Shown here one piece after another: positions 1,327 through 61,819 of a DNA stretch of 64,000 bases. The position numbers were made by a program, and so were the translations under genes. The stretch lies in NCBI RefSeq assembly GCF_053078305.1, contig NZ_CP166879.1; one strand, 5' to 3'. Every line of letters begins with the position of its first letter. Position 1 is the first letter of the stretch. The notes under the pieces were generated by a model, which was given only the letters and a program-made list of their open reading frames with translations, ran no database searches and was not told the DNA's origin.

Positions 1327-1738
1327 TAATCCCTACCTGTTGCTTTATTTTCATTATGAAAAGTTACCAAATCTTAGCACCTCAGTCAGGAGAGTCAGGT
1401 CATCGATAAAGAATATTCCAGTAGAGTGGCGCTCATGATCAAAGATAACAGCAAAGTTGATGACAGCGCTGACCGACTGTCATTTACAGAAACCCTGTTT
1501 GTAGCACATTCCATCTTACCTGACCTCACCCAGACAAAGACAAAAGAGAATGATTGTTATTTACTTTTCAAAAAAAAGTGTCATATTGTCCATATAAAGT
1601 CAAGAGGTATTTTACGTTATGTCACTGATGCAATTGTTAGTCAGGATCTCATGGTTGTCGCTCATGTATAACCTGAGACTTGAACGCACACTAATAGCAC
1701 TGACGGTCATACATCGGGAAATGTGAGGAGGCATAAGA

Positions 1739-1984
1739 ATGAATTGTGATAATAATCACAGAAATGAAGAATTCATTGTTACCTTTGATAAAGGCAACAA
1801 GCAAGACAATTCAAGACGAAAACACGATAATTTTCCTATAGAGGTAGAATCCTCCGTAGAGCAGGAGACACACTGTATCACAAATAATAAGTCGGCTTCC
1901 GGTATAGTAACACATGACTATGATGCCGATTATATTTGTGGTTGTGGTGAAATTATGTGTCCTGGTTGCGGTCATGACCTATAA
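1739..1984 (+). CDS. Hypothetical small protein with C-terminal Cys cluster (CGCGEIMCPGCGH)
   Basis: 81-aa ORF preceded by AGGAGG Shine-Dalgarno; AT-rich like the neighbouring microcin genes; no double-glycine leader. Confidence 0.4.
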   Translation: MNCDNNHRNEEFIVTFDKGNKQDNSRRKHDNFPIEVESSVEQETHCITNNKSASGIVTHDYDADYICGCGEIMCPGCGHDL

Positions 1985-2139
1985 CAAACATTTTTGCAAA
2001 CTGATACCTGATCAGGTACAAGCCTGTTGATTATTATGCTGAATATTTCATGTTATAAAACCATCGATATAAACATTAACAAGAAAAAACATATATTGTT
2101 TATCTGAACATTTATCGATGGAAAACCAAAGGGGAAAGT

Positions 2140-3112: not shown

Positions 3113-4387
3113 ATGATACCTATGAAAAACTATCTTTTCCAGACACCCGAAGATATTTGTGTACAGTTAAAAAAAATGACACATCCTGTCACAATAAGAA
3201 CAACAGATATTGCTAATTTCTGGCACTATCTTGAGTCAGCAACACTTCCAGTGATCACAAAAAGCACCACTACAGAAAATCGGGAGGTTACATTTCTGTG
3301 GCGCTCAGAGAAAGCACTGCAAGGCGTATATCTTCGCCTGAATCGTGTAACAGATAAAAAAGACGTCAAAAAAGGACTAATGACTCATATCCCTTCGACA
3401 GATATCTGGATGCTGACACTGGTGTTACCAGCTTCATATCGGGGCTCATACTCATTTATAGAAATTCCCACAGATATGACACAAAAAGACATATTTCAAC
3501 TAGGAAGTCGCTTCTCTCCATTACCCGGTAAATCTGATCCATTTAACAAAACAGCAGAAATAAATATACGAGGATTCGGAGAATCAGTCCTTTCTCTTGA
3601 TATGGCTCCTGAACAAAAGGAATGGGATGATACTTCCCATAAATGTACAGGTATTCTTTCAACATTACATTCCTTTGTTGCAGGATATCAACGCCGGATT
3701 CGTTTATATTTTCCCCTGAATCCAACATCAGTACCTCTTGGATTACTTGTGTTACCTGATGCTGAAACATGGTTTGACCGGATAGATATTACCCGGGCAT
3801 TAGATATGGCCATCACCACTGGTCGTATCACGCCAATGGCAATTATGGGGATAGACAATATTAATGAATCTGATCGTATGAATATACTGGGAGGCAATAA
3901 AGAACTCATCTTTGATATAGCGGAAAATCTGATACCCCAGTTATACAGAGACTATCCGGATATCGTATGGGCTGGTCGCTCTAATACTGTACTGGCCGGG
4001 CAGAGCCTCGGTGGAGTGACAGCACTGATGGCAGCTATATATGCGTCGACAACATTTGGTACAATCATTAGTCACTCACCTTCAATGTGGTGGAACCCTG
4101 ACCAGGGCAGCCCGATCTTGTTTACTGAGAATAATACCTCCTGGGTAAGTGAGCAGATACTTTCAGCGCCTCCGAAAGATGTAAATATTCGACTTGGAGT
4201 CGGTTCTTTAGAAGGTACAACCGTCTCACATGTTCAGCGATTGCATCATTCGTTAATCGCAGCTGGTTTGGAAAGTAACCTCACTGTCTATACCGGTGGT
4301 CACGATTATGCTTGGTGGCGCGGAGCAATTATTGATGAATTAGCAAATTATAATTGCAGGAAGGTATCAAATAATAACTCTGTGTAA
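3113..4387 (+). CDS. mchS1: Enterobactin/salmochelin esterase (Fes/IroD-like), MchS1-type
   Basis: 424 aa with GQSLGG serine-hydrolase motif; sits between microcin genes and the IroB-like glycosyltransferase. Confidence 0.75.
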   Translation: MIPMKNYLFQTPEDICVQLKKMTHPVTIRTTDIANFWHYLESATLPVITKSTTTENREVTFLWRSEKALQGVYLRLNRVTDKKDVKKGLMTHIPSTDIWMLTLVLPASYRGSYSFIEIPTDMTQKDIFQLGSRFSPLPGKSDPFNKTAEINIRGFGESVLSLDMAPEQKEWDDTSHKCTGILSTLHSFVAGYQRRIRLYFPLNPTSVPLGLLVLPDAETWFDRIDITRALDMAITTGRITPMAIMGIDNINESDRMNILGGNKELIFDIAENLIPQLYRDYPDIVWAGRSNTVLAGQSLGGVTALMAAIYASTTFGTIISHSPSMWWNPDQGSPILFTENNTSWVSEQILSAPPKDVNIRLGVGSLEGTTVSHVQRLHHSLIAAGLESNLTVYTGGHDYAWWRGAIIDELANYNCRKVSNNNSV

Positions 4388-4456
4388 AATATCTTTTTAT
4401 CGTCCGATAACTCTTTCTGCAATATTATTATGGGAGACTATCTCATTTATTTAGTG

Positions 4457-4485
4457 ATGTCCTTCATTTATGTGATGAAGGACAT
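4457..4485. terminator. Hairpin between convergent mchS1 and mchA
   Basis: Inverted repeat atgtccttcat / atgaaggacat with 7-nt loop. Confidence 0.45.
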
Positions 4486-4528
4486 TATATTACTCATAAC
4501 ATTTCTCGTTGAAAATTTCAGCAATACG

Positions 4529-5653
4529 CTACAATTGTTTCCCGTTGTTTTTTAATTTTCTCATCAAAACCTCTGCAATCTCTGCAGGACTGGGTTGTTC
4601 AGCCATTTCAGCGGCTACCTGATCTGAACAGAAGCGTAGTGAATCATCATAAAGCAGGCGATTTACCAAATCACTAGTCAGTCCATGCTTGTCCGGAATA
4701 ATCCCACACCCACGCTTCGCAACAATTTCTGCATTAACAGAGCGATCTGCACCTTCGCCAAACACAATCTGTGGTATTCCACTATACAGCGCTGTCAGGG
4801 TATTACCTGCGCCACCGTGATGAATAAATCCATCAGCTCCATTAAGGAATACACCCATAGGTATCCAGTCAACCAGACGTACATTTGATGGTAGTTTTCG
4901 TAAACCAGTACGAGCATTTATTGCAAGTTGCAAAATGATATCAGCATCAACTTCATTTGCAGAATCCATAACCCATGAAATCAGCTCCAGACCATCAACC
5001 ATTGGTTTTACAGTGCCAAGGCTGATAAGTAAACGTTTCCGATCAGAATCCCTGTCCCACCATGTTTCCTTTACAGCACCTCCGTTATAAGGAATATATC
5101 TCATTGAGATAACCGGTTCTCCAGCATTTTTAAGAATGCTCATACTTGGGGGAGCAACATCAATCCATGCTAAATCACATAGTGGACCGCTGACTCCATG
5201 CCGCCTGTAAGCATTGCTTAAAGAACGGTTTAACATCTGAATATGGGCAGATGTATGCGCGAATCCAACAGCCAGCATCACTGAAGGAATTCTATATTTA
5301 GCAGCAACCAATGGGCCTGCCGGACCAAGAGGGGGATAGACTATTAAATCTGGCCTCCATTTTCCTGCAAAATTGATGAGGTTATCTGCCATTTCATCGC
5401 TAAAAAAAGAGAAATGACCAATAATATTACTTTTTTTCCTCAACTCTTCCTGATGGCGATATCCAGCCTCTGAATCTAAACCTGGAACTGCATCAAAAAC
5501 AACCAGTCCAGCTTCTGCTGCTTTATTCGCGAATTTGCCAGCGCTACTAATTACTACATCATGTCCAATTACACGAAAGGCCTGAGCCAGAGAAATCAAT
5601 GGGTATAACAAACCGTACAGCGGTGGGCCAATAAAAAGAATACGTTTTCGCAT
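4529..5653 (-). CDS. mchA: IroB-like glycosyltransferase (enterobactin C-glucosyltransferase), MchA
   Basis: 374 aa with GT1 glycosyltransferase-like features (N-terminal MRKRILFIGPP..., C-terminal HHGGAGNT motif). Confidence 0.8.
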   Translation of the reverse strand: MRKRILFIGPPLYGLLYPLISLAQAFRVIGHDVVISSAGKFANKAAEAGLVVFDAVPGLDSEAGYRHQEELRKKSNIIGHFSFFSDEMADNLINFAGKWRPDLIVYPPLGPAGPLVAAKYRIPSVMLAVGFAHTSAHIQMLNRSLSNAYRRHGVSGPLCDLAWIDVAPPSMSILKNAGEPVISMRYIPYNGGAVKETWWDRDSDRKRLLISLGTVKPMVDGLELISWVMDSANEVDADIILQLAINARTGLRKLPSNVRLVDWIPMGVFLNGADGFIHHGGAGNTLTALYSGIPQIVFGEGADRSVNAEIVAKRGCGIIPDKHGLTSDLVNRLLYDDSLRFCSDQVAAEMAEQPSPAEIAEVLMRKLKNNGKQL

Positions 5654-6367
5654 TAAAAAAGTCCGTCTTCTGCTTACCTGTTTATTTTTCTATCTCTAAG
5701 AAAACATAATTAATATTATTTTTATGTGAGCTTATGCACAAAAATAACCAAGTATATTATCTTCTGGTAGAGATACAGGATACAGTTTGTAGGAGCTTTC
5801 TTTTTTGAACAATGATTTGCAGGACAGTTATGCTAAACTAGCGGAATCAGTATCACAACAATAAATGACTGTTCATACCTGAAATTTGAATTAACAGGCA
5901 TCATGAATGTCAATAGTCTAAGCGGTGACTACTTATATCGCTTGCATAAATACTAAACACTGACTAGAAAAGTATTGGATAACCCCGTCACTAAAAGTAA
6001 CGCTTCGGTTATTTGCTCGGAATGTATTAACGCCAAGATTGTTAGCCGTTACGCCTTATATCACTGGCGCTGACAAATGTTTCTTTTCTAATTTACTGAA
6101 CCGGCGCAGACACGCAGGAAAGCACGCCGGCACCGGTGTAATGCCAGTTCTAATCAATAAGAATGGAATGACGAATCAGTCAGGAAGGGATAACAACCCG
6201 CTGCTGAACGGAAGGTATCAGCAGGAAGATGAACGGGAATATCGCCAGCACCAAGGGCAGGGCCGGGTTCCACAATACCAGCGCTGGCATTTTGCACATT
6301 GCCAGCGTACCGGCATTACAACACGTTTCATGCTGCTGCCCCCAGGATTCCTCGATTCGTTGCTACA

Positions 6368-16176: not shown

Positions 16177-16295
16177 ACACTCTGCCAGGGGAAATGCCTG
16201 ATTACATTGCGTTAACCAACTGAAAACATGACACAAACCCCTCATCCCCCTCCTGTTTCTCTTGCGTGACCGCTCTGCTGTCAATAGAATAAAAC

Positions 16296-16331
16296 GATCG
16301 ATAAAACAGGTATCGATCGTTACTATCGATC
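16296..16331 (+). promoter_or_regulatory. Ag43 phase-variation switch: three closely spaced GATC (Dam) sites in the OxyR-binding region
   Basis: GATC at 16296, 16315 and 16328, about 220-250 bp upstream of the flu start. Confidence 0.7.
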
Positions 16332-16548
16332 GTTTATAGTGGTTAATGGTCTGCGAAAAGGCAGCTGAATCTCTTCATCATGCAGAACGGAATTGCACAC
16401 AACGGACTGATACTTCTCTGGCGGATGAGAGAGGGGAAGCATTTATGTCCGGGAAAAACCACTTTATCTGACCATGCTGTTTTGTACCTGCCGGTATCCA
16501 CATTTGTGGGTACCGGCTTTTTTATTCACCCTCTGTAAGGAAAAGCTG

Positions 16549-58782: not shown

Positions 58783-59874
58783 ATGCGTTTTCTGCGCCGA
58801 CCAATATCGCTGCGCCAACGGCTGATATTGACCATCGGGGCCATTTTGTTGGTGTTTGAGCTGATCAGCGTCTTCTGGCTATGGCATGAAAGTACCGAGC
58901 AGATTCAGCTGTTTGAGCAGGCGCTACGCGACAATCGCAACAACGATCGCCACATCATGCGTGAGATCCGCGAGGCGGTCGCCAGCCTGATTGTCCCCGG
59001 CGTCTTTATGGTCAGCCTGACGCTATTTATCTGCTATCAGGCGGTACGCCGCATCACCCGCCCGCTGGCGGAGCTGCAAAAAGAGCTGGAAGCGCGCACC
59101 GCCGACAACTTAACGCCCATTGCCATTCACAGCGCCACCCTCGAAATCGAAGCGGTGGTTTCGGCGTTGAACGATCTGGTCAGTCGCCTGACCAGCACGC
59201 TGGATAACGAAAGGTTGTTTACCGCTGACGTCGCGCACGAACTGCGAACGCCACTGGCGGGGGTGCGTTTGCATCTGGAACTGCTGGAGAAAACGCATCA
59301 CATTGATGTAGCACCGTTAGTGGCACGGCTTGATCAGATGATGGAGAGCGTCTCCCAGCTGCTGCAACTGGCGCGTGCCGGACAGTCATTTTCTTCCGGT
59401 AATTATCAACATGTAAAACTGCTGGAAGATGTCATTCTCCCCTCGTATGACGAACTCAGTACCATGCTCGACCAGCGCCAGCAAACCCTGCTATTGCCAG
59501 AGAGCGCCGCCGACATCACCGTTCAGGGTGATGCAACCCTGCTGCGGATGTTATTGCGAAACCTGGTAGAAAACGCCCATCGTTACAGCCCGCAAGGCAG
59601 CAACATTATGATTAAGCTGCAAGAAGATGGCGGAGCGGTCATGGCAGTTGAAGATGAAGGACCAGGTATTGATGAGAGTAAATGCGGGGAGTTGAGTAAA
59701 GCGTTTGTACGAATGGACAGCCGTTATGGCGGGATTGGTCTGGGGTTAAGTATTGTCAGCCGCATTACACAGTTGCATCACGGGCAGTTTTTCCTGCAAA
59801 ACCGGCAAGAGACTTCTGGCACGCGCGCCTGGATACGGCTGAAGAAAGATCAGTACGTGGCAAACCAGATATAA
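58783..59874 (+). CDS. basS: Sensor kinase BasS (PmrB)
   Basis: 363 aa from MRFLRRPISLRQRLILTIGAILLVFELISVFWLWHES... (TTG at 58774 is an alternative start). Confidence 0.9.
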   Translation: MRFLRRPISLRQRLILTIGAILLVFELISVFWLWHESTEQIQLFEQALRDNRNNDRHIMREIREAVASLIVPGVFMVSLTLFICYQAVRRITRPLAELQKELEARTADNLTPIAIHSATLEIEAVVSALNDLVSRLTSTLDNERLFTADVAHELRTPLAGVRLHLELLEKTHHIDVAPLVARLDQMMESVSQLLQLARAGQSFSSGNYQHVKLLEDVILPSYDELSTMLDQRQQTLLLPESAADITVQGDATLLRMLLRNLVENAHRYSPQGSNIMIKLQEDGGAVMAVEDEGPGIDESKCGELSKAFVRMDSRYGGIGLGLSIVSRITQLHHGQFFLQNRQETSGTRAWIRLKKDQYVANQI

Positions 59875-59939
59875 AGAAAGCTGCTGACCACCAGCACGCT
59901 GAACACGGTAGTTAAACTTTCATAAACACGGTTTTTCAT
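59850..59939 (-). CDS. pmrR: Small membrane peptide PmrR
   Basis: 29 aa MKNRVYESLTTVFSVLVVSSFLYIWFATY with GGAGGAGAG Shine-Dalgarno; 3' end overlaps the basS 3' end antisense; found by manual translation. Confidence 0.8.
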   Translation of the reverse strand: MKNRVYESLTTVFSVLVVSSFLYIWFATY

Positions 59940-59941
59940 TG

Positions 59942-59968
59942 CACTCTCCTCCGTTAACCTGGAGGAGA
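59942..59968. terminator. Hairpin between basS and proP (also contains the pmrR Shine-Dalgarno)
   Basis: ctctcctcc gttaacc tggaggagag inverted repeat. Confidence 0.5.
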
Positions 59969-60053
59969 GTATGCGCGTCAGAGATTAAGTGAACCTTAAG
60001 AGTTCAATTGTTGGTCTGATAAGACAGCGTCACATCAGGCCATCCGTTTCAGC

Positions 60054-61556: not shown

Positions 61557-61819
61557 AGCTTTCCTCGCAGAGTTGGCCCATTTCCGCAAACGCCAGAAAA
61601 ATCAGCGCGACGGCCGCAAAAGGGGAGCGGGAATTGCAGGATGCAATCTCTGTAACAAGCGTAGCGGGTTTGCTTACACCCTCCGGTTAAGGAATGTACA
61701 ATCAAACCAGTTGACGCCTGAATTGGGCAGTTAATGACCTTTTTACCCTACCAGCGTTTAAATTTGTGATCAACTTCACACATGGATTTCGTTTAGGACT
61801 CATTGATGTAACTGATTAT

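Follow-up and report, generated by a model that had tools for sequence, protein, structure and literature searches.

What is encoded by the short frame that lies between the microcin H47 and microcin I47 gene pairs of E. coli, and how might its product serve the microcin system? The question was addressed in a 64,000-nucleotide (64-kb) stretch of DNA, referred to throughout as the window, in which the frame was taken from the ORF list as 1739–1984 on the plus strand (ATG start, with the TAA stop included), encoding an 81-amino acid protein, MNCDNNHRNEEFIVTFDKGNKQDNSRRKHDNFPIEVESSVEQETHCITNNKSASGIVTHDYDADYICGCGEIMCPGCGHDL. Direct reading of the sequence placed a Shine–Dalgarno element, AGGAGG, at 1726–1731 (+), 7 nt 5′ of the ATG. 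The ORF has a G+C content of 37%, against 49% for the window, and the encoded protein has an acidic pI (4.8) and is strongly hydrophilic (GRAVY −0.90), with no apolar segment along its length. It closes with a Cys-rich motif, CGCGEIMCPGCGHDL (residues 67–81; 1937–1981 (+)), of which residues 67–79 (nt 1937–1975) read CGCGEIMCPGCGH and the C-terminal end reads ...YICGCGEIMCPGCGHDL. A first-pass annotation of the window had described a small AT-rich gene with an AGGAGG Shine–Dalgarno and a C-terminal motif, and every one of these elements was present in the sequence. Its further statement that the product is not a GG-leader peptide also held: G[GAS] is absent from the first 30 residues, so that a double-glycine leader was not found, and the MREI-type leader of MchB and MccI47, both encoded in the window, is likewise absent. 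The protein has neither a signal peptide nor a leader.

Three further sequence features at the frame were considered. A perfect CRP-type palindrome, TGTGA-N6-TCACA, lies at 1745–1760 within codons 3–8 and is one of only two perfect CRP-type sites in the 64-kb window, the other being at 61765–61780. The palindrome is partly retained in the Salmonella homologue (AGTGA-N6-TCACA) and not in those of Klebsiella or Cedecea; it was not adopted as a regulatory site, as the conserved N-terminal residues (C/S)DNNH may explain it. A weak terminator-like hairpin with a 5-bp stem, found by consensus scan at 2013–2026 (+), 29 nt 3′ of the stop codon, scored no better than shuffled controls. Finally, Rfam returned no RNA family at this locus; the matches above gathering score in the window were the sRNA STnc630 (59843–60008 (−), 182 bits) and IS102 RNA (16294–16530 (+), 75 bits), the latter just 5′ of agn43.

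The protein was found to be identical at 80 of 81 residues to the UniRef/UniProt entry Q712P8, "MchS4 protein", and to belong to the same 90% cluster, the sole difference being Q42 in the window protein and L42 in the reference. An exact protein look-up returned a 221-member cluster with Q712P8 included, and the exact protein is present on at least 1000 contigs. Relative to MchS4 of the E. coli H47 system (Q712P8; GenBank AJ009631 cluster), the window protein has the same length, is encoded at the same site between mchX and mchS3, and carries one substitution only; it is the same gene. From this match, together with the position expected for mchS4, it is practically certain that the 81-codon ORF is mchS4, an accessory gene of the E. 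coli microcin H47/I47 island. The first-pass annotation had proposed an accessory gene of the microcin system, perhaps regulatory or metal-binding, located between the H47 and I47 pairs, and had suggested comparison with mchS4 and mchX: the ORF proved to be the former, its flanks are mchX–mchI–mchB (H47) and mchS3–mchS2 (I47), and the conservation that was to be looked for was found, with homologues placed in the same way in clusters of Klebsiella, Salmonella, Cedecea, Hafnia, Raoultella and Tenebrionibacter. The gene is described as the cause of enterobactin overproduction by the H47 system, and is named in the literature as the single gene of that system behind it, enterobactin being the siderophore used in microcin modification (PMC10380612; PMC6071977). 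Since the gene, its name and the enterobactin phenotype are all published, mchS4 is counted here as already known. The additions made by the present analysis are modest and consist of a family-wide definition of the motif, a prediction of disorder, the recognition of an X/Fur box/S4 cassette and of its occurrence beside a non-microcin cluster, and the documentation of a gap in RefSeq annotation.

On the H47 side of mchS4, the window contains the end of mchC (1–590, −), mchB, the microcin H47 structural gene (862–1089, −), mchI, the H47 immunity gene (1117–1326, −), and mchX (1395–1514, −). The coordinates of mchB and mchI were taken from the RefSeq annotation of an identical record and those of mchX from the ORF list; mchX encodes 39 amino acids (MECATN...LIMSATLLEYSLSMT) and is the divergent partner of mchS4. 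On the I47 side follow mchS3, the MccI47 immunity gene (2140–2574, +; NCBIfam NF041432 MchS3, E = 5e-41), mchS2, the MccI47 precursor gene (2591–2824, +; an ORF with a double-glycine leader), mchS1, encoding the esterase (3113–4387), and mchA, encoding the glycosyltransferase (4529–5653, −). In the identical record, mchA carries a PGAP "frameshifted" flag (4529–5655, −); the ORF in the window is uninterrupted, with 374 codons, and the product in other strains has 372 amino acids. The H47 island forms part of a larger island with Ag43, a CbtA/YeeU toxin–antitoxin pair and CP4-like genes, which adjoins the gsp–sslE type II secretion locus and the glc operon. Some E. coli strains carry IS3-family insertions immediately 3′ of mchS4, as at about 3683–5001 of locus L003 (just after window position 2012) and at 3503–4652 of locus L006; in strain XB2, an IS insertion lies 28 bp after the mchS4 stop codon. 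CFT073 has an IS where mchS3 would be and lacks the I47/esterase/glycosyltransferase part, with mchS4 intact.

Current RefSeq annotation often omits several of these genes. In the identical record, NZ_CM167683.1, mchX, mchS4 and mchS2, the structural gene of MccI47, are all unannotated; in CFT073 the mchS4 ORF is intact yet unannotated; and across RefSeq genomes mchS4 is entered as a "hypothetical protein" in some and not annotated in others. Automated surveys of microcin islands will therefore miss mchS4, mchX and even the MccI47 structural gene. PGAP does place a 78-amino acid "hypothetical protein" at 1435–1671 (+), antisense to mchX and covering the Fur box described below. This ORF was rejected as a real gene: it needs an 8-A run (1570–1577), which is 8 A in the window and 7 A in six non-identical E. 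coli copies, where the frame is broken, and it is probably a spurious call.

For mchS4 itself, the length of the ORF alone would not be decisive in AT-rich DNA, and evidence for translation was sought in its variation. The 811-bp region around the gene is present in 291 of 5426 complete E. coli genomes, in every case on the chromosome and at 95–100% identity. Among seven E. coli copies, variable sites numbered 3 of 246 nt in the ORF and 22 of 565 nt in the flanking DNA, a weak difference (Fisher p = 0.047). Conservation between genera is stronger evidence for a real gene than these site counts. Between genera, the codons for the invariant Cys and Gly residues show synonymous changes (TGT/TGC and GGT/GGA/GGC/GGG), on which ground the frame is taken to be translated, this being the pattern expected from selection on a translated peptide. 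Homologues in other genera likewise have G-rich, Shine–Dalgarno-like sequences in front of them (mostly GGAG; TAGGAGG in the metagenomic locus L016), and for Klebsiella mceE a transcription start has been mapped experimentally and the gene is monocistronic (PMC6071977). A natural allele with I72S and C74F, in which one invariant Cys is lost, was found on about 60 contigs (the cluster of P0013), and several frameshifted alleles are known (P0002, P0003, P0004 and P0006). Given these copies, mchS4 is dispensable in some lineages, and the C74F and frameshifted alleles could act as natural loss-of-function controls.

Sequence comparison places MchS4 and Klebsiella MceE in one family. Profile searches assembled about 35 clusters of proteins, drawn from seven or more genera of enterobacteria and including "protein MceE [Klebsiella pneumoniae]", recovered by the family profile at E = 1e-42, and clusters from Salmonella, Raoultella and another enterobacterium. 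A scan of the genome collection with MchC led to loci in Cedecea, Hafnia and Tenebrionibacter, in which a small ORF in the mchS4 position, divergent from the mchX homologue, ends in YVCGCGCDCCCGCGHDL or YICGCGCESCSGCGHDL. The Tenebrionibacter homologue (L009 925–1245, −) is split into an N-terminal piece (1105–1245) and a Cys-rich piece (925–1083) in different frames, the split reflecting either a frameshift in a pseudogene or an error of assembly. MceE of the K. pneumoniae microcin E492 cluster, the function of which has been described as "undefined" (PMC7680869), resembles MchS4 in genetic setting as well as in sequence. Like mchS4, its gene is divergent from an X gene (mceX), lies upstream of an immunity/microcin pair, an esterase gene and a glycosyltransferase gene, and has a Fur box in the shared intergenic region; the proteins share the C-terminal ICGCG...C.GCGHDL. 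MceE is the longer protein (114 amino acids versus 81) and has six Cys in its cluster (CGCGCESCCGCGH) versus four in MchS4, and the N-terminal two thirds of the two cannot be aligned save for an MNxxK/NxH start.

An alignment of 27 family members was used to define the conserved region. The N-terminal two thirds were barely alignable, whereas C67, G68, C69, G70, C74, G76 and C77 were invariant and G78, H79 and L81 were conserved in at least 90% of members. The family thus has a near-invariant C-terminus, ICGCG-x3-C-x-GCGHDL, and MchS4 matches the family pattern [IV]CGCG-x3-C-x-GCGHDL at its very end; the only conserved part of MchS4 is this C-terminal Cys4(His) cluster, C-G-C-G-x3-C-x-G-C-G-H-D-L. 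The number of Cys residues in the cluster varies from 4 to 7 within the family, with E. coli MchS4 at the minimum of 4 and other members at 5–7, a variability more in keeping with a loose chelator than with one defined site.

Searches for a known fold or domain gave no support for a more specific assignment. Pfam and NCBIfam scans of MchS4 and all 27 family members returned nothing significant; in Pfam, metal-binding profiles included, none of the 27 reached the E = 0.01 cut-off, and one matched Zn_Ribbon_Topo at E = 0.042, far below cut-off. A profile search of PDB sequences gave a chance match only (E = 1.8). An exhaustive phmmer search of 1.84 billion representatives yielded, apart from E. 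coli copies, no true distant homologue; two large repeat proteins in its output were rejected as homologues, their E-values being inflated by repetition (P0038, apparently an out-of-frame translation of a repeat, and P0039, a HYR-like repeat protein). AlphaFold2, run with the family alignment, gave MchS4 a pLDDT of 52 and no secondary structure, and the protein is accordingly predicted to be disordered. The picture that fits MchS4 best is of a small cytoplasmic peptide that is disordered and whose function would reside in the terminal thiolate cluster, C-x-C-x4-C-x2-C-x-H.

Short resemblances to characterized metal sites were nevertheless apparent in the cluster. CGCG(E/S) occurs in the iron/Fe–S-binding C-terminus of IscA/SufA (…CGCGES…) and, as CGCG(E), in the high-affinity Ni site of E. 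coli HypB (CTTCGCGEG), and CPxCG is the rubredoxin knuckle. These likenesses are leads and not indications of membership. With the A-type Fe–S carriers IscA/SufA/ErpA (HesB family) and the N-terminal Ni site of HypB, the likeness is confined to the few residues of CGCG(E/S); MchS4 gave no match to PF01521 or, for HesB/IscA, in the PDB, and is predicted to lack a folded domain around the motif. With rubredoxins and zinc ribbons, MchS4 shares four Cys in all and a CPGCG that matches the second rubredoxin knuckle, but its first knuckle is CxC rather than CxxC, the knuckles are 4 residues apart, and the knuckle Pro gives way to C, S or F elsewhere in the family; no significant Pfam or PDB match to rubredoxins, zinc ribbons or metallothioneins was obtained.

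The control region between mchX and mchS4 was examined for iron-responsive signals. At three or fewer mismatches to the Fur consensus, no match was found in the window; when the scan was relaxed to 5–7 mismatches, a conserved Fur-box-like site was detected at 1546–1564 (GAGAATGATTGTTATTTAC; no strand assigned), which matches the E. coli Fur consensus at 14 of 19 positions and lies in the divergent intergenic region, 175 bp upstream of mchS4. It falls within the most conserved block of that region, 1541–1612 (no strand assigned), which takes in the Fur box and the putative shared promoter region and corresponds to columns ∼70–141 of the five-genus DNA alignment A2, nearly invariant across the five genera. 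The site is conserved in the Klebsiella, Salmonella-plasmid, Raoultella, Cedecea, Hafnia and Tenebrionibacter loci and has a looser counterpart between the X/S4 pair of the NRPS-like locus L018; a Fur-box-like site was seen between the X and S4/E genes in nine of the ten loci examined. In Klebsiella, fragments with the mceX box or the mceE box both titrate Fur in vivo on multicopy plasmids, and the mceX box, the equivalent of the window site, binds Fur in vivo (PMC6071977). The promoter-proximal box that mceE has for itself is not conserved 5′ of E. coli mchS4 (5/19 match by manual count on the alignment), and a promoter scan upstream of mchS4 gave no convincing sigma-70 promoter.

The pairing of the two genes was constant. 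An X-like ORF ending LLEYSL[SL]MF/T is divergent from the S4/E homologue in all ten loci examined, two of which are plasmid-like metagenomic contigs (L016 and L018) without microcin maturation genes. On these contigs the X/S4 pair (L016 5192–5792; L018 7753–8405) stands next to NRPS-like operons (L016 2–4490; L018 1–6570) that follow the X-like gene and encode an AMP-binding enzyme, a PLP-dependent decarboxylase of the Orn/DAP type, an unknown protein and an ABC exporter, with a condensation-domain protein in addition in L018. Because the pair also fronts such NRPS-like, non-microcin clusters, mchX and mchS4, with the Fur box between them, appear to act as a portable two-gene cassette that is set ahead of biosynthetic operons.

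From the invariant Cys4(His) motif we infer that MchS4 binds metal, an assignment that no Pfam, NCBIfam or PDB family supports. The mechanism that we consider best, with a probability of roughly 35–40%, is that MchS4 is a cytoplasmic Cys4(His) peptide under Fur control that binds metal and reduces repression by Fur–Fe. Under iron limitation, Fur would leave the shared mchX–mchS4 control region and MchS4 would be made; its thiolate cluster might then bind Fe(II), an Fe–S cluster or Zn, or engage the metal sites of Fur itself. Less metal-bound Fur would in turn mean further derepression of the ent genes. MchS4 would in this way amplify, by feed-forward, the siderophore supply on which microcin maturation draws, enterobactin being the source of the catecholate that is attached to the microcins by MchA/S1/C/D.

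Among the alternatives, MchS4 could work in regulation with MchX or against it, for instance as a metal-dependent partner or antagonist of that small regulator, the pair controlling the operon downstream of X and the enterobactin effect being indirect. This we regard as unlikely but worth serious consideration, since the X and S4/E genes are adjacent and divergent in every one of the ten loci, the two non-microcin clusters included, both proteins combine a variable N-terminus with a conserved C-terminus, and MceX regulates mceBA negatively in trans (PMC6071977). A pair of this kind would, however, leave the response of the ent genes, which lie outside the island, unexplained, and direct DNA binding by MchS4 is improbable, given its acidity and predicted disorder.

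It is less probable that the enterobactin phenotype arises mainly from the cloned Fur box, with the MchS4 protein real and serving another role. A multicopy mchX–mchS4 Fur box would then soak up Fur, and the ent genes would be derepressed. The phenotype was reportedly seen when the clones were multicopy, and such clones bring the Fur box along. Such titration is favored by the position of the Fur-box-like site, 175 bp 5′ of mchS4, and by the behavior of the homologous Klebsiella fragments, which were positive in multicopy titration assays (PMC6071977). The secondary literature, on the other hand, assigns the effect to the mchS4 gene, and the strong conservation at the protein level shows that the peptide has some function.

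We give still less credence to a direct action of MchS4 on enzymes, either as a metallochaperone or activator of enterobactin synthetase, in the manner of MbtH, or on MchA/S1/C/D. The reported phenotype is enterobactin output, as direct action would have it, and in microcin clusters the gene always adjoins MceJ/MceI-type and esterase/glycosyltransferase genes. MchS4 nonetheless shows no similarity to MbtH or to any enzyme-partner family; with respect to the MbtH-like NRPS partner YbdZ, it gave no Pfam or NCBIfam match, and there is no Trp in its sequence. The same cassette is moreover attached to a different, NRPS-like cluster, and the modification of MccE492 could reportedly be reconstituted in vitro with MceC, D, I and J alone.

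Highly improbable is a role of MchS4 as the precursor of a modified Cys-derived peptide, be it a metallophore of the RiPP type or another bacteriocin, whose "leader" would be variable and whose C-terminal "core" would be conserved. Its variable N-terminus and invariant Gly/Cys-rich C-terminus do resemble RiPP precursors, and the gene lies within a bacteriocin island; yet cyclodehydratase, radical-SAM and MNIO-type enzymes are absent from all clusters examined, and MchS4 differs from class IIb (siderophore) microcin precursors in having no double-glycine leader and in ending ...CGHDL, without the Ser-rich tail required for siderophore attachment. Last, the view that mchS4 is a chance ORF in AT-rich intergenic DNA, to which its omission by PGAP from many RefSeq genomes (one identical to the window included) and its lack of Pfam and NCBIfam family matches might lend color, is disfavoured and hardly credible in light of the perfect Shine–Dalgarno, the protein named in UniProt, the cross-genus homologues with synonymous changes at invariant residues and the mapped transcription start of the Klebsiella homologue.

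Siderophore-microcins (H47, M, I47 and E492) aid probiotic and pathogenic enterobacteria competing in the inflamed gut, and work is under way to engineer them into narrow-spectrum therapeutics. To be active they need a supply of enterobactin, and mchS4 is the only gene of the cluster to which an increase in that supply has been credited. The mechanism is a niche question, and one made directly testable by the terminal Cys4(His) cluster, by the constant presence of mchX and the usual presence of a Fur box, and by the occurrence outside microcin clusters. A broader reading, possible but doubtful at present, is that a portable iron-responsive cassette travels on enterobacterial mobile elements ahead of secondary-metabolite operons of different kinds, be they siderophore-microcin genes or an NRPS-like cluster, with S4/E as a small-protein Fur antagonist or iron sink. 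If this is true, the Cys-rich S4/E peptide would represent a new kind of Fur antagonist or intracellular iron sink, one that locks the producer into the iron-starvation response.
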